A stretch of DNA of 64,000 nt from an uncultured candidate division WWE3 bacterium (GTDB taxonomy: Bacteria > Patescibacteriota > WWE3 > UBA101185 > UBA10185): positions 32,762-96,761 of the forward strand of contig CAIRNR010000004.1 of assembly GCA_903879985.1 (NCBI GenBank), in the 5' to 3' direction. Shown here in pieces: positions 6,571 through 55,800 of this stretch. Below the pieces are notes generated by a model. That model was not told the origin of the DNA. It saw nothing but the letters and a program-made list of their open reading frames with translations, and did no database searches. Every line of letters starts with the position of its first letter. Positions within the stretch are counted from its first letter, which is position 1. The translations under genes were made by a program, and so were the position numbers.

Positions 6571-6739
6571 TGTTATAGTCTAGCATTGTTCCCGCGCTGT
6601 GTTTGCCTATAGGTTACACGCCTGGTATAATGACCCAAGCGCAAAAACTAAATCGGCAAAATTTAGTTAAATATGTGGCATGGGCGAAAATTAGGCCTGA
6701 TGACGCCACAAAGGGCGATTTGCCCGAAGGAGATTTACA

Positions 6740-7330
6740 ATGTTTGGTTTGACGGAACGAGAGTTTTTTAAGATGTATGTCCGGAGCAATGTTAGCTTCT
6801 GGTTCCTTTCCATGGTGCCTTTTATATTTTTCACTGGACCTTTTTTGGTCTGGACTGGTGCCCAAAAGGAATACTGGTTTATGGTAAAAGATACGCCAGT
6901 GCTTCCTTTTTCCTGGATATCGTTCATTGTGGGATTCTTTATTCTCGCTGTGACGATTATCTTGGTGCTGAAAAAATGGAACCATGTTCGTAACGGGCTC
7001 ATTGCGAATCAGCAAAGGCGGATGCTTATGTTCTATCGCCATAGCCTTGATGAATTAGGTGAGAAGCTTAGTAAAGGTAATATCGCAAGTGACCAGATAC
7101 GGCGTGTTTTATATGCCGCTCGTGATGTGTTAACCTCCGAGATTGATGTGTCATTGGAGGAGCTAAATGGCATAGTACACGAGGATGGAACTTATACTAC
7201 GCTGGTGGCCTATGGTTTTTCAATTTATGTGGATATTATTGAAGATATTCCCACATATACTAAACGGTTGTATGCAAAGTACAATGATGCTCCTTCCGTT
7301 TATGTAAACATTTGGACAGTAAACATGTAG
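6740..7330 (+). CDS. Hypothetical membrane protein (2-3 TM).
   Basis: It has a protein-like composition with TM segments and is followed directly by an intrinsic terminator. The competing minus-strand ORFs (6614..7042 and 6691..7002) are low-complexity and basic. The patch is GC-elevated. Confidence 0.4.
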   Translation: MFGLTEREFFKMYVRSNVSFWFLSMVPFIFFTGPFLVWTGAQKEYWFMVKDTPVLPFSWISFIVGFFILAVTIILVLKKWNHVRNGLIANQQRRMLMFYRHSLDELGEKLSKGNIASDQIRRVLYAARDVLTSEIDVSLEELNGIVHEDGTYTTLVAYGFSIYVDIIEDIPTYTKRLYAKYNDAPSVYVNIWTVNM

Positions 7331-18065: not shown

Positions 18066-18605
18066 CTATTTACTTATAGTCGCGTAGACCTCGTACCAAT
18101 TCGTTGTAATTTCCTTTTGGGCCTCCGATAAAGTTATTTTTCCGCTGCAAACTTGCGCATGTAAAAAATTCTCTACTTGGTCTTTTTGTTTTGCTTGTTG
18201 AATTGGTTCAGGAAATAAGTTGTTTGGATCGCTTGGGTTTCCACCAATCTCTAAAGGTATTATATGATCTTCTTCGTAGTCAGCTAGCTTTGTGTCGTCG
18301 TATCCATAATCCTTAATGCCCTGCACTTTCAGCTTGTTTGTATAAGTAACGCTTGGTCTTACCCTTGCGGTATATCCTGAAACGCAAATAGTTGTCTTTA
18401 TGTTTTCCTGGGTTACGTTTGGATCGATTGTGCCGGGATTACATTCTGGATCAGGTAGAGTTCCGTTTAAGCTGCATTTAGAGGTTTTAGCTGGCGTGGC
18501 TGTTACTGCAGATGTAGATTGAGAAGTTTGCTGTATATTTGAGGAGTTTTTTGTTGGTGTAGCGCTTTTGAGTACAAAATAAATCACTGTAGCAACAAGC
18601 ACCAC
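18066..18605 (-). CDS. Membrane-tethered extracellular HNH-family nuclease-like protein.
   Basis: It has a hydrophobic N-terminus (start uncertain; GTG start, with in-frame hydrophobic codons upstream) and a Thr/Ser-rich linker. The C-terminal domain has DHIIPLEIGGNPSDPNNL, which fits the HNH core (D/H-H-I-x-P...N). Confidence 0.5.
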   Translation of the reverse strand: MVLVATVIYFVLKSATPTKNSSNIQQTSQSTSAVTATPAKTSKCSLNGTLPDPECNPGTIDPNVTQENIKTTICVSGYTARVRPSVTYTNKLKVQGIKDYGYDDTKLADYEEDHIIPLEIGGNPSDPNNLFPEPIQQAKQKDQVENFLHAQVCSGKITLSEAQKEITTNWYEVYATISK

Positions 18606-18709: not shown

Positions 18710-19309
18710 ATGAAAACTCGTAATCGGTTTTGGACGATAGGTTTGTTGGTGTTTGTGTTTGTCCTGATTTCGGCCTGCGCACTTGGTGCTGCTCCCGTGC
18801 CCCCACCGCCTGACCCGTTACCGCTGTGGAAAGGAATGGACCCAAATGATATAGCGGGTTCGATGGGCATTTCAAAGGATACTCATGTGATTACTTACGA
18901 GGTGTCCATGAATATTAACCCGAAGTTTTACAAGGGTCCCGGCAAGTTAAGTTATACGAGTAACAAGCTGCTGTTATCTACGGACATCATGCCTACGTTT
19001 ATCAACGAATTTTCTGATTTCACCGTACTCTATGGATACGACGATCGGACGTTGATGTATAACGGAATTGCAACCAAGGCGGTTGTATTTGACGGCAGTA
19101 AGCAAGTTATAGCCGAGGCAAGATTAGAAGAAGGCGACGGCAGGACACTTACGCTTTTGGAGGTACATTACGACACCTCTGGAAATGTGATTTTCTGGTG
19201 CCACAGTACTATCAGTACTGGACTTGGGGACAAGATCGATGAGTACGATGTTAATGGTGTTAAGGCTAAAGAGTATTTCTTCCTTTGGCCGGTTTCTGCA
19301 TTCAACTAA
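18710..19309 (+). CDS. Lipoprotein, function unknown.
   Basis: The signal peptide has the lipobox LISAC. A poly-Pro linker (PVPPPPDPLP) follows, and a terminator lies downstream. Confidence 0.45.
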   Translation: MKTRNRFWTIGLLVFVFVLISACALGAAPVPPPPDPLPLWKGMDPNDIAGSMGISKDTHVITYEVSMNINPKFYKGPGKLSYTSNKLLLSTDIMPTFINEFSDFTVLYGYDDRTLMYNGIATKAVVFDGSKQVIAEARLEEGDGRTLTLLEVHYDTSGNVIFWCHSTISTGLGDKIDEYDVNGVKAKEYFFLWPVSAFN

Positions 19310-19330
19310 CTTTAGGATAGAGTTTTGCTT

Positions 19331-19368
19331 GGGCATACATTTTTTTTGGAAGTGTGTGCCCATTTTTA
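19331..19368 (+). terminator. Rho-independent terminator.
   Basis: GGGCATACA-(13 nt)-TGTGTGCCC followed by ATTTTT. Confidence 0.45.
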
Positions 19369-19502
19369 TAGGTCACAAATATATCGCTGCTTGTAGTCCT
19401 ATAGTAGGTATTTAATTTAATTAGTGTTATGTATTTTTTTTACCCTAAATTAATCCATTTTAAGTTTGTGTATATAGCTAAATTGCTGTTAATATAATAG
19501 TA

Positions 19503-20099
19503 ATGAAATTTTTAGATTTTAAAGGAAAAACCCTTAATTTGGGGGATCAATTTAGTGCTATATTTTCAAAGGCAAAACCTGTTCTAGTGCAATCCGGAAT
19601 TATTGTTACGGTTTTAGTTATAATAGCGGGATCTTGCGTCACTTATTACAATTATCTAACTTTAAAAGAACTTTCTGTCCTTGTAAAATCTCAATCGGAA
19701 ATTATTTCAAAATCTTCAAACTTTAAAGAAAGCGTTAAAAATTCTGATTCGACTTCGTTTGAAATTTCAAATATTAATAAACAACTCGCAATAGTGCTTT
19801 CAAAAATATCAAATAATTCTTCATCTAAAATTTCTGAACCTTCTACAAATGTAACCCCTACCCCAGATGCACCTGCCTATTTGGGAATGATTAGAACCGT
19901 CAATGACCCTACGACTACAGTAAATATATACGATGTGCCAAGCAATGGTGGCAACATTATTAGTACTGTTCCTTCAGATGATCTACTTTTTTATTATAAA
20001 ACTGCCCAGGGTTGGTATCAGATTGAACTAGAACCTGGGAATTTAGGTTGGATTCAGGCTGATTTGGTAATAGAATTACCTAGTACAACGAAAGAATGA
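19503..20099 (+). CDS. Membrane-anchored protein with a C-terminal bacterial SH3 (SH3b) domain.
   Basis: It has an N-terminal TM helix, a Ser-rich linker, and a C-terminal region (TVNIYDVPS...GWYQIELEPGNLGWIQADLV) typical of SH3_3. Confidence 0.5.
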   Translation: MKFLDFKGKTLNLGDQFSAIFSKAKPVLVQSGIIVTVLVIIAGSCVTYYNYLTLKELSVLVKSQSEIISKSSNFKESVKNSDSTSFEISNINKQLAIVLSKISNNSSSKISEPSTNVTPTPDAPAYLGMIRTVNDPTTTVNIYDVPSNGGNIISTVPSDDLLFYYKTAQGWYQIELEPGNLGWIQADLVIELPSTTKE

Positions 20100-20926
20100 A
20101 GATTATTAAAATAGTATTGAACTTATATTGTTTGCTCATAACACTGCCCCTGTTAGTGGTAGGGTTTAAGAATTTGAATTCATTTGCCAGTTTAACCTTA
20201 TTTTTATTTTTACTTCCTATCGCTCTTTATTTGCCTGTTAGTCTTTTTGGTAGATTAAAAAAAGTAAAAATTACTTTAGTAGTAATTAATTTTATTTTTT
20301 CACTAGTCATATTGGTTGTAGAGTTGTTAGCTGTAAAAAACCTAGTTGATGGTATTTTTGTATTTTTATTTTTACCGGTCTTTATTAACTTTTTAATGCT
20401 TTTGATTCAATGTTTTAAAAAATCCCCTGAAAAAGAAGTTATAGAGGCTGACGCTTTTGCAACCGATACACCTGCAGCAATCGATACCTTAATTTTTGAG
20501 CAAGAACACTTAGTTCAGGATGAAACTAGGCGTAAATTTATTAAGGTTATAGCCGGTGCGGGAATTGGCACTATCGTTTTATGTTTAATGAATCCTCAAA
20601 AGGCTGCAGCCGCATTTTTTGGAAGTATGCCTGGTCCTGGTGTCATTTCGATAAAGGATTCAGCAGGTACAAAGATTGATCCTTCAATAAAAGATCCAAC
20701 GGATAGTTACGGCATTAGTGATACAAGTGAAACTGGAGTAGCACATTACTATGGATTTATTCACTATAACGGTAGTGACTGGTATATTTTAAAAGATGCT
20801 GGAGATGGTACATTTGCTTACGCCACTAAGGCTAATAACGTAGGTGTTGCTTATGCAACTGCGTGGACAAATAAAGCTTCGAGTTTAGGTTACGGTTCCT
20901 TTTCTGCTGCCTTTAAAACAATATAA
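20096..20926 (+). CDS. Polytopic membrane protein with a C-terminal extracytoplasmic domain; hypothetical.
   Basis: It has an ATGA start-stop overlap with the upstream gene, about 4 TM helices, then a soluble 150-aa region. Confidence 0.4.
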   Translation: MKIIKIVLNLYCLLITLPLLVVGFKNLNSFASLTLFLFLLPIALYLPVSLFGRLKKVKITLVVINFIFSLVILVVELLAVKNLVDGIFVFLFLPVFINFLMLLIQCFKKSPEKEVIEADAFATDTPAAIDTLIFEQEHLVQDETRRKFIKVIAGAGIGTIVLCLMNPQKAAAAFFGSMPGPGVISIKDSAGTKIDPSIKDPTDSYGISDTSETGVAHYYGFIHYNGSDWYILKDAGDGTFAYATKANNVGVAYATAWTNKASSLGYGSFSAAFKTI

Positions 20927-20928
20927 AC

Positions 20929-23900
20929 TTACCACCACAACAAAACTCGCCACATTTCATTACCTGTATGTCTCATAACGTAAAGGTATCTTAAATGATC
21001 CTTTGGATAAGATGATGCGGTAGGATCAGCGTATTCTATAATTTCCATTCTATTACCAATAACTGCTGTACCCATACCATAAGGAACCGTTGCGGAAGGC
21101 ATTACAAGGTTAGTAACAATATCGTAATAGTTAATTCTACCAGTAGCCTCTTTTGTAAAATAAATTCTGTCGACGCCGTCATAACTGTACATAGAACCTG
21201 TTGTTAATGTTTCCATATTTGGGAACTGAGTGATCGTTTCCCAAACTCCATATGGAATATCGTATCTGTTAAGTTCGGTTGCCGCACCACCTCTAAAAGA
21301 ATACATAAATCTTGCCTTCATATTAGAAGTGCTTGGATCATATAATCTATCTAAATGTAAGCCAGTACCACGAGGTGTTATTGGATAAATAGCGTAAACA
21401 TCTGCGCCTGCTGTGGCACCAATGGTAAAACCAAAAGAAGTACCAAAAGCGGACATTTGTGTCTGACTGTTCTGTCCTGCGGCTACGACAGCTTGCTCAG
21501 CTGGGTTTGCGGTTCCTGGTACCTGACCTGCAAGCATTCGTGCTCTGTGACCTGCAAAGTATGCGTATGGCCAGTTCTGTGTGTAATCAATAATTGCTGT
21601 TGTGGAACCTCCTGTAGCAACTCCGTAACAATCTAATATTTCGTAAACTGTTGTTGCATCTGTCGTGGCGCTTAATGCTGTAGCTAATGTAAGCGTTGTT
21701 GCGGTGTTAGACAAAATCGCTGCCTGACTTCCCGCCCCTGCCCCAGCGACAATTTGTACAAGTCTTGCGTCGGTTCCTTTTATGGTTCTTATAACGGAAC
21801 CTGATTCTGTAGTTAAACCAGACGCGACTGTTAAAGTACCTGCCGCGGAGGTTACAACTTGGAACCAGCTATTGTTACCACTTTGCGAAAAGCCACTTAA
21901 TTTAATCCACATACCTACTGTGAATACTGCTAAACGGCTTGAAGAGTCTGTAATAGTTGTTGAGTTTGATACCTGAATTGTTGCATCACTAGCTGACACT
22001 ATAGTTTGTAATGTTTGGTTAAACCAGTTTACCGGCCAGTTTTTTGTTGCGTCGATAATTGTTTTAGCATCGCCGGCTGTTGATGTACAAACACCCCAAG
22101 TTCCTTGATTTGGTGTTCCTGAAGTGGCTCCTGGTGGAAAATACGAAGTTTTAGGCAAGGTTGAGTCAACTCCAAAGGGTTTCATATCTTGAATCATATA
22201 GCGTGTTGTACCATCAACTGGAGAGGCGCCTAAAACTAGAGTGCCCATTGTAAATGTTGTGGAGGTGTTTGCCGAAATTCTTCGTACATAGCCACCTGCA
22301 CCAATTTGTATGGATACAAGTTTGCCTACAAGTTCACTTGGTGCCCAATTTTTTGTAGCATCAACTATGATTAATGTAGTTTGTGCTTGGGTTACGGTTG
22401 CTGTACCTGTGGCTGTTGCTCCAACTGAAAGTCTAAAAATTAATGCTGTATCGTAACCGACAACTGGCCAAGCGCCGTTAATAGCTGCCGGTGCAAGAGC
22501 GCCCGCAACGGTTACAGAGTCACCAATTAAAAAGTTTGTAGAAAGAATAGTTGTAACCGCGGCAACGTTTGTAGTTGCGCCTGATGCCCACGAAACGGTA
22601 CATCCCGTGCCTCCTGCTGGTAAAACTGTTGTAACAATTGTTGATCCGGTAGTGTTATACGCGGTTCCCGCGTTTTCTAAAGCTATACTTGTTACAGCAC
22701 CAACTGAATCAACTCCTGTAACTCTATACTTTGCGGTAGTACCACCACCTCCGTTAACCGTCAAAATATTTCCAATAAAATAACCACTGCCTCCTGCGGC
22801 AATTGTAACCGGTTGTGTGCCTCCTGTATTACCTACTAATCCTCCGGCGGAAACTACAACACCTCCTGCAGCCACACCGTGTGCTCTGTCTCCAGTTTGA
22901 CCTGGTGCTGATAAAGAAATAGCTCTACAAATACCCCAATCTAATTGTGTTCCCGTTGTCCAATGATCTGCATCGATTCCGTATTGTTGCATGGCTGAAT
23001 GTGTAGCATACGTAGACCATATCTTGTCGGTGTCTGGCCATACCTCGTAGCCATCTCCATTCGCGGGATTAGAAAGCCAACTTTTTCCTATCGTAAAAGA
23101 TGTGGCATCGTTAGCTATGATTGTTCGATATTGGCCAATACTCGCTGCGGTGGTTGATGCGGTTATGCGTAATTGCATTCCTGCATATTGATTAATAACC
23201 ATATTAGCACCGGAGTTTACTAATCTTCTGGACGTTCCACTTGTTGCTGTAACGCCTGTTATTAATGCTGATGGACCGTCGTGTACTATTTCTGTAGCCA
23301 AATCAGTAGCTGCAGCATTTAAAAAGTTATACTGCACCGATTTAACGTGCCAGTAATCTGAAATTACATCATAATAGGAAAGTGAAAGCCATGGAGCTGC
23401 TGCAGAATTTAACAACCAAATTCCGCCACCTTTAACAACGAATCTTGATGTGGCATCAGGTGTAACGTCCCAAGCAACGGAGACTGTAATCATGGAAGCT
23501 TCAATATAGTAGTCACTACCTGCACCGGGTGCGGTCCATGGAGGATTTCCCCAAGGATCAATGGCTAAATACGCTGGGTCTGCTACGGTAAGAACGGTTG
23601 AAGTATTATATAAAATACGTCTAACCTGAGATTGACCAGTGCCTAACACAACTCTAACCTGATAATCCCGCCATTGATTTGGTTTCCATAGTCTATAAAT
23701 AGGTGGATTAACTGTTGCATCTGTTAACGATGTCGTCGCGCCCGCAGTTGCTACCCCGTAGTCATACGTTATAGGTTCACCAACATCTAATATTGTTCTT
23801 TCCTGACCTGCACCTGTTCCTGATAAGATTTTTATTTTTAATCCCTTTAAGGCTTTTCCATTTAAGGCAGCTGCATAAAAAGTTGTAGTAGTTGGTGCAG

Positions 23901-24177
23901 GTGAAGCTAAAACTCTTGAGTAATATCCGACGTCGTTGGAATAGCGTAACGGTGCATCTACAGCCGCGGTTACAGGTCCGTTAGCTAATTGGTGCCATGT
24001 GTCGTTGATTGTGTCATAACGATACATCGTAGCTGCAGTATAGTAATACATGTATCTGGGTGCTCCAGGAGGAGAACATGTAGCACAGATGTTTGTATTG
24101 GTAGCGACTGGTGCTAATTTACACCATTCCCATACCGGTTGATCAACTAAATTTTTTAAATTTAATGTAATAGCCAT
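20929..24177 (-). CDS. Giant (1082 aa) Thr/Gly/Ala/Val-rich fibrous protein, possibly a fibre or adhesin; no N-terminal signal peptide.
   Basis: It is one uninterrupted ORF with internal repeats (IIDATKNWP, IVDATKNWAP, IIDYTQNWPY) and beta-rich composition. It is co-oriented with two upstream small genes. Confidence 0.5.
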   Translation of the reverse strand: MAITLNLKNLVDQPVWEWCKLAPVATNTNICATCSPPGAPRYMYYYTAATMYRYDTINDTWHQLANGPVTAAVDAPLRYSNDVGYYSRVLASPAPTTTTFYAAALNGKALKGLKIKILSGTGAGQERTILDVGEPITYDYGVATAGATTSLTDATVNPPIYRLWKPNQWRDYQVRVVLGTGQSQVRRILYNTSTVLTVADPAYLAIDPWGNPPWTAPGAGSDYYIEASMITVSVAWDVTPDATSRFVVKGGGIWLLNSAAAPWLSLSYYDVISDYWHVKSVQYNFLNAAATDLATEIVHDGPSALITGVTATSGTSRRLVNSGANMVINQYAGMQLRITASTTAASIGQYRTIIANDATSFTIGKSWLSNPANGDGYEVWPDTDKIWSTYATHSAMQQYGIDADHWTTGTQLDWGICRAISLSAPGQTGDRAHGVAAGGVVVSAGGLVGNTGGTQPVTIAAGGSGYFIGNILTVNGGGGTTAKYRVTGVDSVGAVTSIALENAGTAYNTTGSTIVTTVLPAGGTGCTVSWASGATTNVAAVTTILSTNFLIGDSVTVAGALAPAAINGAWPVVGYDTALIFRLSVGATATGTATVTQAQTTLIIVDATKNWAPSELVGKLVSIQIGAGGYVRRISANTSTTFTMGTLVLGASPVDGTTRYMIQDMKPFGVDSTLPKTSYFPPGATSGTPNQGTWGVCTSTAGDAKTIIDATKNWPVNWFNQTLQTIVSASDATIQVSNSTTITDSSSRLAVFTVGMWIKLSGFSQSGNNSWFQVVTSAAGTLTVASGLTTESGSVIRTIKGTDARLVQIVAGAGAGSQAAILSNTATTLTLATALSATTDATTVYEILDCYGVATGGSTTAIIDYTQNWPYAYFAGHRARMLAGQVPGTANPAEQAVVAAGQNSQTQMSAFGTSFGFTIGATAGADVYAIYPITPRGTGLHLDRLYDPSTSNMKARFMYSFRGGAATELNRYDIPYGVWETITQFPNMETLTTGSMYSYDGVDRIYFTKEATGRINYYDIVTNLVMPSATVPYGMGTAVIGNRMEIIEYADPTASSYPKDHLRYLYVMRHTGNEMWRVLLWW

Positions 24178-24193
24178 AAATTAATTATTTTTA

Positions 24194-24499
24194 TTAAAAC
24201 GTAATGTTGTTTCTTATTCCGATTGCATATTCCATTCTTGCTCTGTCCATTATTTCGTATCTTTGATCAACAGGTTGTGCTGCTATAGAGACTGGTTGTG
24301 TACTTTGATAAAAAGTTCCTGTTACTGCTGTTGATGCCGCAGCTTCAACTACAACTCTCTGTCTTTGCTGGATATCACATACAGCACTTGGTTCTAATAA
24401 TTTAACAATTCTTCTTAAAAGGGAAACACTTTCATCTTGAGCTGGGTTTATAACTGTTCCGCTACTATCTGCGACTCTTGTTTGTTCAAAATATGACAA
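24194..24499 (-). CDS. Hypothetical 101-aa protein between the fibre-tip-like gene and the giant gene.
   Basis: The ORF is clean and co-oriented with its neighbours, with gaps of 17 nt and 36 nt. Confidence 0.3.
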   Translation of the reverse strand: MSYFEQTRVADSSGTVINPAQDESVSLLRRIVKLLEPSAVCDIQQRQRVVVEAAASTAVTGTFYQSTQPVSIAAQPVDQRYEIMDRARMEYAIGIRNNITF

Positions 24500-24534
24500 T
24501 TTAAATTCTCCTTAAAACTTTTTAAATATAATCC

Positions 24535-24912
24535 CTATATAATATACCAATTGGTACCTTTAGAGACAACCTGCATAGCAGAATTTTGAAATGCTAATAT
24601 AACGGTTGCGTTTCCATCATCAATTTTATCCGAACCTGCACCAGCTACGGTAACAGTATTTATCGTTGAATCAGTTTTTTTTATTTTATAAACCTTATTT
24701 GGGTGAGTTGTGGCATCTGGAAGTGTAATTGTTATATTTCCTGTTAGCGAACTAGAGGCGTCCGCCAGAATTACTGTTCCTGCGTCTGCAGCTGTATTTC
24801 CCGTAACGGTAACAGCATTTATTATGTCAATAACACCAGTGATAGAAAGATCACCAATTTGGTGAGAATGTAGTAACGGTTTTCCTAATAATTTATCGAT
24901 TGTGACGGGCAT
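24535..24912 (-). CDS. Small beta-rich protein resembling phage or adhesin receptor-binding tip domains (inference).
   Basis: The ORF track start at 25017 is a TTG and overlaps tatC. The ATG at 24912 (MPVTIDK...) is more likely. The C-terminal pattern YKIKKTDSTINTVTV...IDDGNATVIL...VVSKGTNWYII recalls tail-fibre tip modules. Confidence 0.3.
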   Translation of the reverse strand: MPVTIDKLLGKPLLHSHQIGDLSITGVIDIINAVTVTGNTAADAGTVILADASSSLTGNITITLPDATTHPNKVYKIKKTDSTINTVTVAGAGSDKIDDGNATVILAFQNSAMQVVSKGTNWYII

Positions 24913-24957
24913 AATTGCTTGTTTCCATGCTAACAATATTGTACCATTAATACAAGT

Positions 24958-25668
24958 ATGGATGATAAAAACGAGACGTACGAAATTTTCATAAAAGAGT
25001 TTATGGTACTTCGTCAAAAATTGATAAGTGTTTTTATTTTATTCTTCGCCGGATCGGCTATAGGATTACTTTTTAATCAACAAATATTAAAATTGGCACT
25101 CAAAATATTTAATTTCAGTGGTGTTAACATGGTTTTAACTTCTCCAGGGCAAATGATTGAAATTTCTATTTACACTGCTGTGTTAACAGGCCTGTTTTTT
25201 GCCACTCCTGTGCTAATATATCAAATTTACATGTATATTCGACCTGCATTTAAAGATAAGGAATATCACTTAATTATGTCTTTTGTTCCTTTGAGTCTTG
25301 TTCTTTTTATTTTGGGAGGAGCTTTTGGTGTTTGGATTAATCAATTAATGCTTGCCCTTTTTTCTAAATTTTCCAGCGACTTTAGACTGAATAATATTTG
25401 GGATTTACAACGATTTTTCTCTCAAGTAATTATGACAGCAATTTTGACCGGGCTTTTATTCCAAATGCCTTTGTTTTTATCTGCGCTAATAAGATTCAGA
25501 TTGTTGTCACGACAGCTTTTAGTGCAAAAAAGAAAAGTCGCATATGTTATCTTGTTAATAATCGCAGTTTTGCTGCCACCCACTGACATTTTGTCCTTAC
25601 TTATTCTTACAATTCCACTTATACTATTATATGAATTAACTTTGTTTTTAAATGTTGGACAACCTTAA
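24958..25668 (+). CDS. tatC: Sec-independent protein translocase TatC.
   Basis: It has 6 TM helices and TatC-type motifs, LTSPGQ and the YMYIRPAFKDKEY loop (compare F-I-x-P-G-L-Y-x-x-E). Confidence 0.7.
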   Translation: MDDKNETYEIFIKEFMVLRQKLISVFILFFAGSAIGLLFNQQILKLALKIFNFSGVNMVLTSPGQMIEISIYTAVLTGLFFATPVLIYQIYMYIRPAFKDKEYHLIMSFVPLSLVLFILGGAFGVWINQLMLALFSKFSSDFRLNNIWDLQRFFSQVIMTAILTGLLFQMPLFLSALIRFRLLSRQLLVQKRKVAYVILLIIAVLLPPTDILSLLILTIPLILLYELTLFLNVGQP

Positions 25669-25683
25669 AGGAGGTGCATTTTT

Positions 25684-25863
25684 GTGTTTGGAATAGAAAA
25701 TATTGGAACACCGGAGATTATCATTGTCGCAGTAGTGCTCTTGATTATTTTTGGACCTAAAAAGCTTCCAGAGTTTGCTAAGGGATTAGCTGATGCAGTT
25801 AAGGAAGTAGGAAATGCCTTCAAAGGCGATAAAGGAAAAGGACAGGAGAAAAAAGAAAGTTAA
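25684..25863 (+). CDS. tatA: TatA/E-family translocase subunit (59 aa; absent from the ORF track).
   Basis: A GTG start lies 10 nt after AGGAGG. The translation VFGIENIGTPEIIIVAVVLLIIFGPKKLPEFAKGLADAVKEVGNAFKG... has the TatA hallmark FGPKKLPE and an amphipathic helix. Confidence 0.65.
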   Translation: MFGIENIGTPEIIIVAVVLLIIFGPKKLPEFAKGLADAVKEVGNAFKGDKGKGQEKKES

Positions 25864-25868
25864 GGAAA

Positions 25869-28800
25869 ATGAAGAATGTGCGCATGCCCAAAAGTTTAAA
25901 AGTTCTTATTTTTGGAGTACTTTTTAGTATTCTCTATGTTGGGGCTGCCTCTAAAGTTATGGCAGCTCCTGCCGAATACCAACGCTGTGGACGCGGTGGT
26001 AGTTGTGAAATCGGTGAATTCTTATACGACGATTCATATTCGCCGATTACAACTGCGGGTATTTGTATTCTTACAAGTCGTACTTCATCTGGAAGCGTTT
26101 ATGCCGATCCTCCTTCAATAATGACTTCTTCCAGTGCGGGAGATGGTTGGTATTCATCTAACTGGACAGTTGGCGGTGCTCAAACCGAAGGACTTTATCC
26201 CACAACAGTTTGTTGTACTCCTGTTGGAGAAAATAAAATTTGTATCGATAAATCTTTTGTTATTGGTACAACTTTATTATCTGGCTCGGAAGTAGCCAAT
26301 GCCGTTTGGGATTCACAAACCAGCGATCACACAGGCGCAGGAACTTTTGGAAATGTATTAGGAAATATTTTATATAACATTTGGAATTACGGTACGCGCT
26401 CATTAACTTCTGCAACATTAGCCCTAGGAGAACAATTAGCTGTTAAATCTGAAGTAAATTCATCCATTACTGCATCACAAACAGCTGTCACAAGTGCTGT
26501 TAGTGGTTCACAGGGGTTGGTTATAGCAAATCAGAACTCAAATACAGGAACAGTTACCAGCGCCGTCACAGGTTCACAAGGTTTAGTGATCGCTAACCAA
26601 AATTCCAATACGGCTAGCGTAAACAGCGCGGTTGCAGGCTCTCAAGGATTGATTATTGCAAATCAAAATTCCAATACCGGAACAGTTACAAGTGCTGTTA
26701 GTGGTTCACAAGGATTAATTATTGCAAATCAAAATTCCAATACGGATAGTGTCAACAGTGCAGTTACAGGATCACAAGGTTTGGTAATTGCCAACCAAAC
26801 TGCCAATACATCTACAATTACCGGTTGGATAACTAGTACGCTCGCCGCACTACAAGCCGCAATACTTGGACAACAATCAAGCGATACCTCGTCATTAGCA
26901 GGCACTGTAACAAGTGCTATGTCTGGTTCACAAAACGCAATTATTGCCAATCAAAATTCAAATACAGATACCGTTACAAGTGCTGTTACTGGGTCTCAAG
27001 GTTTGGTAATCGCAAATCAAACAGCTAACACAAATACAATCACTGGTTGGATAACAAGTACGCTTGCATCATTACAAGCCGCAATACTTGGACAACAGTC
27101 ATCAGATACTTCTACATTGGCAGGAACCGTTACCAGCGCCGTCACAGGTTCACAAGGTTTAGTTATAGCAAATCAAAATTCAAATACTGGTACAGTTACA
27201 AGTTCAGTTTCCGTTGCACAAAACGCAATTATCGGAAACCAAAATTCAGCAACAGGAGTAATAACAGGCGCAGTTTCAAGTTCAGTATCGGCAGCTCAAG
27301 GTGCAATATTAGGTCAACAAACATCTGACACATCAACAATAACCGGTGCAATAACGGCAGGAACAGGCACAGTTACCAGCGCTGTTAGTGGTTCACAGGG
27401 CTTAATAATTGCCAGCCAAAGTGCTGCAACGGGCACAATAACAGGTGCAGTTTCAAGTTCTGTTTCTGGAGCACAAGCTGCAATTTTAGGTCAACAAACA
27501 TCTGATACTTCAACGCTTTTAGCACAAATGCTCGCAGACAAAACCTACTTGGGAAATGCAGTTACTTCTTCTCAATCAGCAATTATGGGACCCTCTGCTA
27601 AAAATCTAACGCAAATTGCAACAGGTGTTTCCGGATTACAATCAACAGCAGATTCTATTTCCACAAAAGTAGATTCATTGCAAACATCTATAGGTACGGT
27701 GGATACGAATGTTGACTCACTAATAACCAATTGGAATAATCTAGATTTGTCTCAGGTTTCTAGTGCCATGAGCGCAATAAGTACAAGCTTAGGTACTATT
27801 TCAGACGGATGTGCAAGTACAACTACTGTTTTTGGTGATATTCGCTGTTTAAAGGATAAATGGGGAGTTCAAGATGCCTCATCTTTGTATAATGCCGCAA
27901 ATAATGCTTATACAACATCTATAGCACTTCAGGGTGAATTGGATTATAACCAAAAATCGACAACAGCTTATAAAGATTTACAAAATTTAAAAACTTATGT
28001 GTTAGCTCTTCAAACTTCCTTAGGTACCGAAGCTGACGCGGCAACAGTGCCTACTATTTTTGGGCGTATTAAAAAATCTCAAGATACATTGGCAAATTTA
28101 AATACATCGGGAACCGGACTTGACGATTTACTAAGCAAGTGGGGTTCTTATGATGCCGCCGATATATATAACAAGGTTAAAAATCTTTCTGATGATATAG
28201 AAAAGGTTAATACAGTTCCCGACGTAGATTCGATTTTAAAATTATCTAAACAAAACTCTTCAGATATGAAAGAGTTGAAAAATACAACTTACGCATTAAA
28301 GGCTGTTGTAGATGTTAACAGAGTTTTACTTGATAAATTTTCAAATTCTCCAATTGTAAAAACATGGCTTGAAGATGGCTCGGTAATTTTCAAAACATTA
28401 ATTACTAACCCATCAACTATTTCTAAACAAACAGTTCCTCTAAAATTTTATCTACCTAAAGAAACCAGAAAAGAAGATTTAATTAAAGTAGATACAGGTT
28501 TGAATGTTGAATTTGATTCAAAAGAAGATGCATTTTTTGTTAGTGGTTTATTCCCATTAAATCCTGGTGAAACAAAAATAGTAGCTGTTGAGGTTAAGGA
28601 TGTTTGGAAAATAAATACAACTGAATTGGATTCATTAAGAATGCAAGCCGAAGATTTATCTGTTCCTCTAAAAGATAGTTCGTTTTTTGCGCAAGGTGTA
28701 ACTCTTAAGTCGGATATCGTCGTACGACTTGACGATATTAAACGTTTGCAAAGCGAGGCTTATACACCAGAAGATCGTATCAAAACTTTCAGAGACAATA

Positions 28801-45459: not shown

Positions 45460-47496
45460 TTATTTTATATTGTACCAACCGTTTTGGAAGCTATCGGCCG
45501 AAACAGGAACGCTATACTCTCCGCTTTTGCAGTGATTTATTGGTTTAATTTTTATATTCTGCCAACTTGCAACGTTTGGCAAAAATTCATGACCGTCATT
45601 ACTCATATTTGAAATATTCCATGGATAATTTCCGGTGCCATCATCTATTTTTACAGAAATTTTATCGGCACCATATTGAGTCCAAATTAAGTTCATGCCC
45701 GATACACCGTTTACTGTTGCCGGTTCTAATTTAATCCAAGTCGTTTTTCCTGGTTTACTCCATAGGCAGCGTGTATCTTTTTTAAATGTTTTAAAGCTTG
45801 CAGCTGCTGACTGTGTTTCTGAATAACTAAATTCTTGTACGCGACTTCGTGCGTTATCAGTAACAAAAACGTTTTCATCCTTATCTACAACTATTCCGTA
45901 AGGTTTATAAAATTGGCCAAGATCTATACCTGGAGTGCCATAGATTTGCCACGTATTACCGTTATACATTTGTATACGACTATTAAAATCGTCAGCGACA
46001 TATAAATTCCCGAGTGAATCAAAAGCAATATCTGAAGCGCCTTCAAATTGTCCTGGATCAGAACCTTCTCCTTGGGCAACAACGTTCCAAGTTGTACTAC
46101 CCACGGGTAAAACGCTAATACTACTGTCTCCAGAAGAAACAACGTAAACATCACCATTTTCAGCTATAGCAATGCCCACAGGATTATCAAATGTTGTGTC
46201 TGTTCCTAATTCAGTCCATGTATCGTTTATATATTCATAAACTTTTCCGAAATCTGTATCCGTAACATAGACATTGTCGTTTTTATCAACAGCTATTCCC
46301 ATTGGAGTATCTAATACCTCGTTAGAATTTTGAAAAATGGACCAGTCTTCCCCATTGTAAGTCATTACGTTTCTGTTTTCCGGATTTGTAACATAAATAA
46401 CTCCGTGAGAATCTACCGCAATACCATAAGGCATAAAATCTTCTCTGTCCTCAGTTGTAGAAATAGTTGACCAGTTTGTGCCATCGAACACTTGTATTTG
46501 GTTATTAGTTGAATCAGACACATAAATATGACCATTTTTATCAGTGGCTATTTTGGTTGGGTTATCAAACTTTCCTGCTCCAGTGTAACCACCATATGTT
46601 GTTAGCTCATCTTCAAAAATATCGTATTTGATTATAGAATGTGCTCCTGTGTCTGCTACAAATATATTGTTACCATCTGGAGTTACGGCTATTCCGTAGT
46701 TGTAGTCAAAACTACCTGACAAAACTTCTGACCAATTTTCGCCATCAAATCTTACAATTCGGCCATTAGATGTATCAGATACATATACTTCTCTGTTGTT
46801 ATCTACGGCTATTCCTGAAGGGTATGATAGTGCTCCGATTCCGCTACTAGCACTATCGAATGCGTGCCAATCGTTACCATCATACATTTGGAATCTTTGG
46901 TTCATTGTGTCTATTACGTAAAGTTTATCTAGTGGATCAATAGCAATTTGACGAGGACTGTTAAATTGTCCAACACCCGCTCCGGAAGTGCCTATTATTG
47001 TCCAGGTCTCTCCATCAAACTTTTGTATACGATTATTCCCTTGATCTGATACATAAATATTTCCTTGTGAGTCAGTTACAACGCCATAAGGTTGGTTAAA
47101 CTCTCCTAGCCCACTTCCACCACTTCCAATTATTACCCAAGTTTCACTTGTAGCATCGTATTTTTGAATTTGATTGTTATAGGTATCTGCTACGTAAACA
47201 TTGTCATTTGTGTCAACGAATACTCCAAACGGAGTGTTCATATTTTGTTGATCTGAATTAGCAAAAATTGTCCACGCGGAGTTTTCATATCTTATTATTC
47301 TGTTATTTCCGGAGTCAGCTGCATACATATTTCCATGGCTATCTAATGCTACAGAACGTGGTTGGCTAAAAAGAATTTCGGGCCAGGCTTTAATTGTTGA
47401 AGGGTGGGTAAAGTCAATTGCAGCGTAAGTCTTTGCGTTAAAAAAAACGCAACTACATGCTACAAACACTAGCAGTTTAAGATAAAAAGGTTTCAT
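45460..47496 (-). CDS. Secreted NHL-repeat beta-propeller protein with the shared C-terminal module (subtype 1).
   Basis: It has a signal peptide and about 10 NHL-type repeats (YAADSGNNRIIRY, YVADTYNNQIQKY, YVSDQGNNRIQKF and others), then FKKDTRCL plus a 95-aa C-terminal module ending NHCKSGEYSVPVSAD. Confidence 0.6.
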   Translation of the reverse strand: MKPFYLKLLVFVACSCVFFNAKTYAAIDFTHPSTIKAWPEILFSQPRSVALDSHGNMYAADSGNNRIIRYENSAWTIFANSDQQNMNTPFGVFVDTNDNVYVADTYNNQIQKYDATSETWVIIGSGGSGLGEFNQPYGVVTDSQGNIYVSDQGNNRIQKFDGETWTIIGTSGAGVGQFNSPRQIAIDPLDKLYVIDTMNQRFQMYDGNDWHAFDSASSGIGALSYPSGIAVDNNREVYVSDTSNGRIVRFDGENWSEVLSGSFDYNYGIAVTPDGNNIFVADTGAHSIIKYDIFEDELTTYGGYTGAGKFDNPTKIATDKNGHIYVSDSTNNQIQVFDGTNWSTISTTEDREDFMPYGIAVDSHGVIYVTNPENRNVMTYNGEDWSIFQNSNEVLDTPMGIAVDKNDNVYVTDTDFGKVYEYINDTWTELGTDTTFDNPVGIAIAENGDVYVVSSGDSSISVLPVGSTTWNVVAQGEGSDPGQFEGASDIAFDSLGNLYVADDFNSRIQMYNGNTWQIYGTPGIDLGQFYKPYGIVVDKDENVFVTDNARSRVQEFSYSETQSAAASFKTFKKDTRCLWSKPGKTTWIKLEPATVNGVSGMNLIWTQYGADKISVKIDDGTGNYPWNISNMSNDGHEFLPNVASWQNIKIKPINHCKSGEYSVPVSADSFQNGWYNIK

Positions 47497-54276: not shown

Positions 54277-55800
54277 TTAGTTTAAGTTGTACCAACCACC
54301 AGGAAACTTGTCGGCTGACACAGGAACACTTTCAACTCCTGATTTGCAGTGATTTTTTGGTTTGATGGCTATGTTCTGCCAGCTTTGTACATTTGGTATA
54401 AACTGATGGCCATCGTTTGTTGAGTCAGCTATTCTCCATGGATAGTTTCCTGTACCATCGTCAATTTTTATTGAGACTTTGTCGGCACCATATTGTGTCC
54501 AAGTTAAATTTACGCCTTTTACTCCGTTTATTGTTGTAGCTTCAGCTTTTATCCAAGTTGTTTTAACGGGTTTGCTCCATAAACATCGTAGATCTTTGTT
54601 AAATGTTTTAATCGTTGTTTCACTCGATATTGAGCCTCCAATGGAGTCATCGTAAATCGCTACTCTATTATTACCTGAATCTAAAACGTAAAAATTTACG
54701 CCGTCGTTACCTAATGCAGATGGCTGATTGAATCCAGCAGAATTTACTGATTCACTATTATTGTTTGTGTTGTTAGATACAAAATCCGGTTGGCCTAAAA
54801 CTCCAGTAGCATTTTGGCCATTTTGTGTGGGCAAAGTATCCCAAATTAATACTCTATTGTTACCTGGATCGCCAACATACAAAACATCATTTTGAATTAC
54901 TATTCCCATAGGGTATGCAAGTGTATTAGCTGCGGGAAGATCATGTCCCCTGTTAACCTCGTAACCTGTAAAGTCTTCCTGTCCTAGCACTAGATCTGCT
55001 TCTTTATCATTCGAGTCCGGAATTGAGTTCCAGATTAGTACTCTTTGCATGCCTCCATCGGAAATATATAATTTGCTTTTATATACATAAATACCATTCG
55101 GTCTGTTAATAGACGTACTGGAGCCATAAGTATCTGCAGCTGACGTAAGTGTCGCAGCACCTAAAACTAGATCTGCGTCTTGACCATTTTGGTTAGGAAG
55201 TGTTGTCCAAATTAAAACGCGTCCGTTGTTTACATCGGAAACGTATAAACGTGTACCGTCGTAAAATACTGTCATTGGTGTACCCATGCTGTTGGCCGCG
55301 GGATCTTCCCCTCTGTTGTAGCCTACACTTAGCATGTTATCCTGTCCCAAAACTAAATCTGCTGTGCCTGCAACGGTATCTTCAGTGGGAATCTCATTCC
55401 ACATCAAAACTCGATTATTAAAGGTATCGGTTACAAACAATTTTGTATTGTCAGTAAAAACTCCCATTGGTCCGTTAAGTCCAGTAATTACAACATCATA
55501 AGGTTCTTCGTTTGTGGTTGGAATGTGATCCCAAATTATTACCCTGTTATTTATGGCGTCAGCTACAGCAACATATTTATCGGTAACACACAAATCGCCC
55601 GCCGGACCTTCCCCCATGACATTTAAATTTCCGCTTTCTAGTGTTCTATCAATTAGTGAACTGGAGTTAAGTGCGGCTGCCGAAACATTCGGTGCAAAAC
55701 AAATAGCTGTTAAGATTATTGAGAAAATTGTGAATGAATGGGCAAATCTCTTATACATTGAATTAATTATAGAAGTTAGGTCTTTAGTGTAAATAGACAT
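54277..55800 (-). CDS. Secreted NHL-repeat beta-propeller protein with the shared C-terminal module (subtype 1 paralogue).
   Basis: It has a signal peptide and NHL-type repeats (FVTDTFNNRVLMW, YVSDVNNGRVLIW, YVGDPGNNRVLIW, YVLDSGNNRVAIY), then FNKDLRCL plus a module ending NHCKSGVESVPVSAD. Confidence 0.6.
   Translation of the reverse strand: MSIYTKDLTSIINSMYKRFAHSFTIFSIILTAICFAPNVSAAALNSSSLIDRTLESGNLNVMGEGPAGDLCVTDKYVAVADAINNRVIIWDHIPTTNEEPYDVVITGLNGPMGVFTDNTKLFVTDTFNNRVLMWNEIPTEDTVAGTADLVLGQDNMLSVGYNRGEDPAANSMGTPMTVFYDGTRLYVSDVNNGRVLIWTTLPNQNGQDADLVLGAATLTSAADTYGSSTSINRPNGIYVYKSKLYISDGGMQRVLIWNSIPDSNDKEADLVLGQEDFTGYEVNRGHDLPAANTLAYPMGIVIQNDVLYVGDPGNNRVLIWDTLPTQNGQNATGVLGQPDFVSNNTNNNSESVNSAGFNQPSALGNDGVNFYVLDSGNNRVAIYDDSIGGSISSETTIKTFNKDLRCLWSKPVKTTWIKAEATTINGVKGVNLTWTQYGADKVSIKIDDGTGNYPWRIADSTNDGHQFIPNVQSWQNIAIKPKNHCKSGVESVPVSADKFPGGWYNLN

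Follow-up and report, generated by a model that had tools for sequence, protein, structure and literature searches.

We report that three adjoining genes on the chromosome of an uncultured candidate division WWE3 bacterium, here named P125, SMALL and BIG, appear from their sequences to match a phage gene order part for part (fibre end, small protein, large protein), and that SMALL and BIG have kept a chromosomal site beside tatC, a gene of the pathway for twin-arginine translocation (Tat), in many phyla of the candidate phyla radiation (CPR). The window, by which we mean the whole 64-kb stretch of DNA analysed (contig CAIRNR010000004.1, assembly GCA_903879985.1), is cellular DNA and there is no prophage at the locus. 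The explanation that accounts best for these observations, and in which we place middling confidence, is that CPR bacteria maintain a chromosomal complex of the distal phage-fibre type that would be exported in folded form through the adjoining TatAC translocase. A preliminary description of the same DNA had drawn attention to the three genes; the most informative features of the locus, which are the adjoining tatC and tatA genes and a twin-arginine module in a 276-aa membrane protein (TM276), were missed in it. The three minus-strand open reading frames (ORFs) that it listed, with short gaps between them, are present where it placed them (35 nt between P125 and SMALL, 16 nt between SMALL and BIG).

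Homology to a phage virion module

Homologues of BIG number more than 246, proteins of ~950 aa matching it at phmmer E 1e-134 to 1e-221, and its relatives are encoded on at least 392 IMG/VR contigs; the viral loci examined are numbered L038-L117. On a 186-kb T4-like contig the SMALL-BIG cassette lies between the portal gene and those for the prohead protease, scaffold and major capsid proteins, and at other myophage loci BIG stands near genes for the sheath, the large terminase subunit (TerL) or the major capsid protein. SMALL is directly upstream of BIG in nearly all of the ~100 loci, phage and CPR, scanned with a hidden Markov model (HMM). It is characterized by the core motif INPAxDE-LLRRIVKLLE..D..QRQRV and by D.R...D.AR..Y..GIR..L.F at its C-terminus, and its alignment takes in a 164-aa protein of the T4-like phage, gp65 of phage Pam2 and a 306-aa protein of locus L007. 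The window SMALL gene is preceded by an AAGGAG ribosome-binding site 8 nt upstream, and its product has no signal peptide.

Pam2, a siphophage of the cyanobacterium Pseudanabaena, is the only cultured match among 50,697 phage records. Its gp66 (875 aa; ON014754 65292-67919) aligns with BIG at 34% identity (tblastn, E 1e-31), gp65 aligns with SMALL, and the two genes are adjacent and in the same order as SMALL and BIG. Both products are marked as detected by mass spectrometry in Pam2 virions (Table S2, PMC9382816), and Pam2 is the one phage for which virion incorporation of SMALL and BIG homologues is established. The SMALL-BIG cassette is a very common phage virion module that bears no Pfam, NCBIfam or PHROG-function name, and BIG belongs, to judge by sequence, to a large and uncharacterized family of phage virion proteins. 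The relation to a phage fibre or receptor-binding module put forward in the preliminary description is therefore upheld, since SMALL and BIG are homologous to a phage virion pair.

The name that gp66 carries, 'flagellar hook-length control protein FliK', derives from a BLASTp match to a Parcubacteria protein (Table S2, PMC9382816), the source named being Parcubacteria bacterium C7867-004. In one BIG homologue PF13861 is the sole Pfam domain, the window BIG has no Pfam or NCBIfam match, and the label looks like a propagated misannotation. Searches of the three window proteins against Pfam, NCBIfam and PHROGs returned no trusted family; weak matches (PHROG 'head closure Hc2', E 0.003; PHROG 'tail fiber protein', E 0.006; DUF6182, E 0.011) were not relied on.

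The third element of the phage order is provided by P125. Its gene had first been called as 160 aa from a TTG codon; the ORF is real, and its translation almost certainly begins at an internal ATG, giving 125 aa. The start was revised because the homologues are 123-127 aa long and begin MPVTIDKLLG, and also because the shorter start abolishes an overlap with tatC, whose own start then lies 45 nt from that of P125. A relative 99% identical to P125 has a gene call of 125 aa. The protein consists of a short HxH-containing N-terminal segment and a ~90-aa all-beta domain. The pattern YKIKKTD...NWYII, which had been likened to the tips of phage tail fibres or receptor-binding proteins, is the conserved core of the family to which this domain belongs, and the likeness is borne out, the domain being found at the C-terminus of phage fibres. 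The family comprises 53,653 cluster representatives at E<=1e-3, and a single protein can contain as many as 24 copies in tandem; tandem or C-terminal placement is frequent, and the domain is found together with beta-helix, Gp5_C, BppU_N and depolymerase domains. Despite the size of the family, no Pfam model for the domain matched the window protein. In ~20 viral loci the P125 HMM picks out the very C-terminal end of the ORF just 5' of SMALL; these ORFs encode fibre proteins of 245-1948 aa, and both of those scanned against Pfam (L043, L095) contain collagen repeats. In one viral locus (L056) the domain is encoded by a separate gene, as it is in the window.

Predicted structures of P125 and BIG

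The AlphaFold2 (AF2) model of P125 has a predicted local distance difference test score (pLDDT) of ~88 over residues 30-125 and of 78 overall. When residues 30-125 were compared with the PDB using Foldseek, matches were obtained at probability 1.0, with TMq 0.51-0.59, a root-mean-square deviation of 2.4-5 A and 13-22% identity. They include the gp83 tailspike of Acinetobacter phage Solidus (E 4e-6, TMq 0.59), the baseplate of Klebsiella phage KP1, 5iv5_AC and the N-terminus of CBA120 TSP4 (PDB entries 24qj, 9f4b, 5iv5_AC and 7rej/7rfv). Entry 5iv5 is the T4 baseplate-tail tube complex, and we take its chain AC to be gp10. P125, by sequence a phage fibre-end domain, is predicted on the strength of this model to have the docking-domain fold of gp10 and tailspikes.

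The portrayal of BIG in the preliminary description, as a 1082-aa protein rich in Thr, Gly and Ala, beta-rich, with internal IIDATKNWP-type repeats and with neither a signal peptide nor a transmembrane (TM) segment, is accurate in each respect. Its composition is 13% T, 12% A and 10% G, and the repeats correspond to six related units of ~70 aa recognized by profile-profile comparison (hhalign probability 92-99.8%; residues ~100-165, 150-235, 310-385, 598-668, 700-850 and 855-935). A kinship of these repeats with the P125 domain was considered and rejected (hhalign probability 0.7%). No signal peptide or TM segment is found in BIG, the highest 19-residue Kyte-Doolittle mean being 1.41. The start cannot be moved upstream, as no other possible start codon lies between the preceding stop and the one used. 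Conservation of the first residues excludes a hidden signal peptide, M1 and the motif at the N-terminus being almost unchanged across 71 homologues, including those from phages.

The AF2 model of BIG, computed from the 71-sequence alignment, is all-beta (pLDDT 82; predicted TM-score, pTM, 0.84), with Kelch-like blades at the N- and C-terminus and Ig-like domains in the middle. Foldseek against the PDB gave weak matches to Kelch, galactose-oxidase and DDB1 propellers with a global TM <0.15, and a local alignment to Keap1 blade fragments (TMt 0.48); no fibre, receptor-binding-protein or S-layer fold was matched. In BFVD the one strong match is an uncharacterized member of the same family (TM 0.82/0.92), nothing meaningful came of searching PDB sequences with a profile built on the BIG alignment, and no Pfam or NCBIfam family exists for the protein; PF01344 (Kelch) is present in three of its homologues. 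BIG is accordingly modelled as a compact multi-domain all-beta body and not as a fibre, which gives no support to the earlier view of the 1082-aa protein as part of a fibre. The structural comparison with fibre, receptor-binding and S-layer folds that had been suggested for both proteins divides between them, P125 matching tailspike and baseplate structures and BIG matching none.

These models bear on the proposal that the locus encodes an intact fibre or something akin to a tailocin, in which a long trimeric tail fibre would serve as weapon or adhesin. The tailspike- and baseplate-type fold of P125 speaks for it, but the predicted shape of BIG is compact and resembles no known fibre fold, and the window ORFs scanned include no genes for a sheath, tube, baseplate or collagen shaft; we regard this proposal, whose tailocin-like form had been raised in the preliminary description, as hardly credible.

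Some further observations concern the BIG sequence. The window protein is ~120 aa longer than most homologues, and part of the excess is an insertion in repeat unit 5 (residues 723-801, ~21775-22011; pLDDT <50) with a motif resembling a mid-protein small beta-barrel segment (VGMWIKLSGF...WFQVVTSAAGTLTV). Proteins of ~1185-1340 aa from Bryobacterales/Bryobacteraceae (L026-L034, L036) share only 43-100 aa with BIG, and ~2400-aa proteins from two CPR genomes (L035, L037) have likewise short matches of 43-100 aa. Since these matches fall mostly within one ~70-aa unit, the BIG repeat unit also occurs outside the family.

Conserved linkage to tatC in CPR genomes

In a scan of GTDB species genomes, full-length BIG was found almost only in CPR genomes, with representatives in Saccharibacteria, Doudna-, Nomura-, Buchanan-, Collier-, Taylor- and Parcubacteria and in Sungiibacteriota. 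A tatC gene lies within a few kb of SMALL and BIG in every CPR locus with enough flank for the judgement (L001, L006/L009, L008, L010-L013, L015-L019 and L023; the Buchananbacteria contig, which ends inside BIG, was left out), and this linkage holds across two gene orders and in all the phyla just named apart from Buchananbacteria. Synteny and best matches indicate that the window, too, is probably from a CPR bacterium. In layout A, represented by the window, L001, L006 and L018 and fitted by L020 as far as its contig extends, a giant SH3 gene, tatA and tatC occupy one strand, P125-SMALL-BIG is divergent from them, and the genes for TM276 and a 198-aa SH3 protein (SH3_198) are convergent with BIG. 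In layout B (L010-L013, L015, L016, L019 and L023) the order is SMALL, BIG, a ~300-aa CPR-specific gene, tatC and the giant SH3 gene; in L017 tatC is upstream instead. tatA occupies the same position as in the window in L001 and L006. Homologues of the giant SH3 protein adjoin tatC/tatA in L001, L006, L011-L013, L015, L016, L018 and L023, and in L019 a fragment of it lies upstream of SMALL.

The ~300-aa gene follows BIG in L010-L013, L015-L017, L019 and L023. The central region of its product is weakly Glucosaminidase-like (PF01832, 26.6-28.1 bits, under the cut-off of 30.2), and inspection by eye suggests a coiled coil at its N-terminus and a tail rich in Ser, Thr and Pro, with no signal peptide. 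The gene is not found in the viral loci or in the layout of the window. The envelope context of the cassette consists of this putative peptidoglycan hydrolase in layout B and of the SH3_3 proteins that flank the locus.

If the locus were what is left of a prophage in decay, or inert phage cargo that does nothing for the cell, its homology to phage virion genes would be explained, and a remnant had been among the earlier suggestions. This reading does not fit the conservation of the locus beside tatC across many CPR phyla: the neighbourhood is kept across several candidate phyla at ~35-45% protein identity, and the CPR loci syntenic with the window sit on contigs of 0.2-1.3 Mb. All three ORFs are intact, no other phage genes were found among the ORFs scanned across the 64 kb, and the CPR loci carry additions of their own (the Tat signal, TM276 and the glucosaminidase-like gene). 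We consider a remnant very improbable.

A few loci depart from the general picture. L006/L009 (CAZDWN010000002.1) has a tatC-tatA pair on each side of the cassette. Two CPR-type loci are filed under proteobacterial names, L009 as 'uncultured Pseudomonadales' (CAZDWN01) and L015 as 'uncultured Gammaproteobacteria' (CAZHXI01), and both have the usual CPR content (SMALL with a Tat signal, or TM276, along with tatC and the giant SH3 protein); the names given to these assemblies are probably wrong. A phage-like cassette with no tatC is present on two small contigs labelled 'Schlesneria' (L021, L022).

Twin-arginine signals

In layout B, SMALL is 207-282 aa long and opens with (K/R)R-x-F-L-(K/R), after which come a hydrophobic stretch and an AxA site, as in DDDRRNFLKILGGASVGAAVLSMIPSKAQA. 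A strict search for the Tat motif recovered eight of the ten long CPR SMALL proteins, the other two being recognized by eye, and none of 85 viral SMALL proteins. With the TIGR01409 model (cut-off 16.7 bits) the SMALL proteins of L012 (19.7 bits) and L010 (17.4 bits) pass, and the others are subthreshold or have the motif by eye. Relative to these 85 viral sequences, a Tat-type signal appears by motif to be present in the CPR copies only.

TM276 in the window has a poorly conserved hydrophobic N-terminal half, which we read as several membrane helices, and a ~100-aa C-terminal domain. Between its ends lies a twin-arginine-like module, ETRRKFIKVIAGAGIG...QKAAAA/FFGSMPGPGVISIKDSAGTKIDP, and TM276 is the sole window ORF of >=80 aa in which an RR pair is followed by a hydrophobic stretch. 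The twin-arginine block is kept in five orthologues, with R146 invariant, and residues 141-200 give BLAST matches in all of the long CPR SMALL proteins to the Tat-signal region at the N-terminus (35-47% identity, E 1e-5 to 8e-11). TIGR01409 scores two of the orthologues below threshold (14.8 and 9.4 bits). TM276 is a candidate Tat-targeted partner or anchor. What may be a third way to place a Tat-like signal in the cluster is seen at L008, where a small ORF (6664-6936; 52-90 aa, depending on the start) containing MDRKDFLKYSGLVILGLAGF, with RKDFLK and a hydrophobic stretch, lies between tatC and the gene for a 237-aa P125 homologue. The non-classical export mentioned as a possibility in the preliminary description is plausible in this light, as the locus is linked to Tat.

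Evolutionary history of BIG

A neighbor-joining tree of 84 BIG proteins (100 bootstraps) led us to reject a single domestication event, monophyly of the CPR sequences being recovered in 0/100 bootstraps. CPR sequences interleave with genuine phage ones, and several clades that combine the two have a support of 100. The layout-A group of L001, L006, L018 and L020 is supported at 100%, falling to 66% when the window is added, and several layout-B sequences group at 100% with sequences from viral contigs, one of which (L100) carries TerL and sheath genes. The closest database relative of the window BIG (P0002, 45% identity) is encoded behind a collagen-like fibre gene. The viral neighbours are probably not misclassified CPR DNA: L059, L039, L108 and L085 encode proteins that are phage-like by eye and contain none of the CPR marker genes used. 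The interleaving therefore points to repeated exchange and not to one clean domestication; the BIG family is exchanged between phages and CPR chromosomes, and the chromosomal site beside tatC persists.

Ongoing exchange, as implied by this strongly supported interleaving, is also what one would expect of a cytoplasmic anti-phage decoy, in which host copies would bind the fibre components of incoming or assembling phages and poison virion assembly, CPR-phage exchange maintaining the defence set. The absence of a signal peptide from the three window proteins fits such a function, but the decoy leaves the adjacency of tatC and tatA, the Tat signals on SMALL and the wall-related neighbours unexplained, and it seems to us quite unlikely.

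Proposed mechanism and its assessment

The reading that we prefer, folded export of a fibre-type complex through TatAC, would proceed as follows. In phages, a fibre gene, often collagen-like, has the ~90-aa docking domain at its end and precedes the genes for the small protein and for the ~950-aa all-beta protein. In CPR bacteria the shaft is missing, and the docking domain (free-standing here as the 125-aa protein), SMALL and BIG are encoded beside tatC/tatA, the giant SH3 wall protein and further envelope proteins. BIG would fold in the cytoplasm, as in phage assembly, and bind SMALL; the complex would then cross the membrane through TatAC by hitchhiking on the twin-arginine signal of a partner. 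In most CPR lineages this signal would be that of SMALL itself, and in the layout of the window it would reside on the paralogous module of TM276, possibly also a tether; TM276 and P125 may be among the binding partners of BIG in the window. Once exported, it would serve for binding at the cell wall, with attachment to host cells or other surfaces as its likeliest use.

Several points weigh against this mechanism. The case for export is weakest for the window itself, where P125, SMALL and BIG have neither an RR motif nor a hydrophobic N-terminus and, as in layout A generally, the Tat-type motif sits mid-protein in a separate membrane protein; TIGR01409 does not report the window TM276 motif. 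Of the CPR signals, just two score above the curated threshold, and in several the pair is KR and not RR. That SMALL binds BIG and that BIG leaves the cytoplasm are steps that we infer; the interleaving of CPR and phage BIG sequences tells against one clean domestication; and the linkage to tatC could instead reflect the neighbouring envelope proteins.

The last of these points belongs to a wider alternative, in which only the signal-bearing SMALL or TM276 is a Tat substrate, with BIG, the window SMALL and P125 cytoplasmic or otherwise released, or in which tatAC adjoins the cassette on account of its envelope neighbours. The signal-less trio of the window is consistent with partial export, complex formation being a supposition of ours, and the constant company of the giant SH3 protein with tatA is consistent with coincidental linkage. 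By eye, however, the N-terminus of the giant SH3 protein is of the Sec type with no RR pair, and the protein therefore does not explain the link to Tat. The Tat signal has been added specifically to the phage-derived SMALL, and SMALL and BIG occur together in nearly all of the ~100 loci and are both in the Pam2 virion, which argues against a separate fate for the two proteins; we judge this alternative unlikely. Returning to folded export through TatAC, a bolder formulation would have CPR bacteria send out a folded phage-derived receptor-binding complex through a dedicated TatAC, as a wall-mounted attachment organelle for an epibiotic lifestyle whose genes are refreshed from phages; this is possible but doubtful.

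Gene content of the window

The positions of the genes at the locus are collected in Table 1. The gene for SH3_198 overlaps that for TM276 by 4 nt; its product seems from the sequence to be anchored in the membrane by its N-terminus and carries an SH3_3 domain at the C-terminus, and homologues in the same position in L001 and L006 make it a neighbour kept in the window-type layout. The giant SH3 protein has a Sec-type signal by eye, hydrophobic segments near the C-terminus, two C-terminal SH3_3 domains and a long region that is coiled-coil-like by eye. It contains ~10 copies of a 22-aa unit, SAVTGSQGLVIANQNSNTGTVT, encoded by tandem repeats at 26486-27209 with a period of 66 nt and higher-order periods of 132 and 222 nt. 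It could be a cellular shaft or anchor in place of the collagen-like fibre of phages.

Table 1. Genes at the locus, with positions in the 64-kb window
Feature	Position	Strand	Basis or remark
P125, as first called (160 aa, TTG start)	25017..24535	minus	ORF call
P125, revised start	24535..24912	minus	125 aa; ATG = Met36 of the longer ORF, position 24912
SMALL, 101 aa, TTG start	24194..24499	minus	ORF call and homologue alignment
BIG, 1082 aa, ATG start	20929..24177	minus	ORF call and homologues
tatC	24958..25668	plus, divergent from the trio	PF00902, E 1.7e-39
tatA, 59 aa	25684..25863	plus	PF02416, 50.8 bits (cut-off 21)
TM276, 276-aa membrane protein	20096..20926	plus	convergent with BIG, 2-nt gap
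SH3_198, 198 aa	19503..20099	plus	SH3_3, E 1.4e-5, 25.6 bits (cut-off 27, just missed)
Giant SH3 protein, 1316 aa	25869..29819	plus	SH3_3, E 4e-12; directly after tatA

The Pfam scan took in ~39 ORFs across the window, several of them with no match. Those annotated by Pfam are cellular (ApbE, Dus, helicase, ABC/ECF transporters, MscL, VIT1, MFS, HlyD, MarR and aldehyde dehydrogenase), and no gene for a capsid, terminase, portal, integrase, sheath, tube or baseplate protein was recognized among the ~39, no search having been aimed at att-site repeats. This agrees with the earlier remark that capsid, terminase and integrase genes are missing nearby, and the lack of sheath, tube and baseplate genes among these ORFs speaks against calling the locus tailocin-like. 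The window contains no tRNA genes, and a scan of 19300-26000 for promoters and terminators gave counts no higher than in shuffled sequence.

Elsewhere in the window, a 179-aa protein (18066-18605, minus strand) has a hydrophobic stretch at the N-terminus and a linker rich in Ser and Thr, along with a DHIIPLEIGG motif reminiscent of HNH nucleases; no Pfam family is above threshold. Two proteins with NHL-repeat beta-propellers are encoded on the minus strand at 45460-47496 and 54277-55800 (PF01436, E 2.6e-70 and 5.5e-11, respectively).

Significance and comparison with known systems

Much of bacterial diversity belongs to the CPR, whose cultivated representatives live attached to other microbes; to our knowledge, little has been established about how they bind their hosts beyond type IV pili. 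They also have few cofactor enzymes for a Tat system to export. The locus is a concrete candidate for both host binding and Tat cargo in CPR. If a folded phage-derived complex is indeed exported through a dedicated TatAC, it would represent a new class of phage-derived cell-surface device and also the first major cargo to be defined for the Tat system of these bacteria, with their reduced metabolism. A literature search found no description of the module or of its link to Tat in CPR. For phage biology, the analysis defines a common, unnamed virion module and a docking-domain family with no Pfam model for the window protein; for annotation, it flags a FliK name without model support that passed from a Parcubacteria protein to Pam2.

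The closest known counterpart is the gp65/gp66 pair of Pam2, which shares with the window the same gene pair, gene order and full-length homology, and whose products are in virions. The Pam2 pair differs in lying in the tail/fibre gene region of a phage and not on a chromosome and, compared with the CPR loci, in lacking a Tat signal, neighbouring tatAC genes and a free-standing P125 gene.

For P125, the nearest structural parallels are gp10-type and tailspike XD domains (CBA120 TSP4, gp83 of Acinetobacter phage Solidus and the baseplate of Klebsiella phage KP1), whose fold resembles the model of residues 30-125. Such domains are trimeric docking modules that join fibres or spikes to each other or to the baseplate. 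Known XD domains stand at the N-terminus of the spike, whereas in the cassette phages the domain is at the C-terminal end of the fibre; unlike either, P125 is a free-standing cellular protein, for which docking and trimerization may be supposed by analogy.

Precedents for the suggested route of export come from Tat hitchhikers, such as the small and large subunits of Escherichia coli hydrogenase and DmsAB, which are co-exported, and from Bacillus subtilis phoD-tatAd-tatCd, in which a dedicated translocase is encoded beside its substrate. The locus resembles the former in that signal-less proteins are encoded beside a partner bearing a twin-arginine motif, and the latter in that tatA and tatC adjoin the presumed substrate genes. 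The known cases concern redox-cofactor enzymes or a phosphodiesterase, whereas the cargo here would be a structural complex of phage type, whose export we infer. The internal position of the signal in the window TM276 recalls the Rieske proteins of actinobacteria, whose insertion uses Sec as well as Tat.

Tailocins (R- and F-type), extracellular contractile injection systems (eCIS/PVC), type VI secretion systems and gene transfer agents are likewise phage structural genes kept on chromosomes for an apparent cellular purpose. These machines retain genes for the tail tube, sheath, baseplate or capsid, and they work through contraction or packaging. The window locus differs in having kept only a distal fibre-end module, and what is unusual relative to other phage structural genes retained for cellular use is the coupling of such a module to a general protein-export pathway, Tat.

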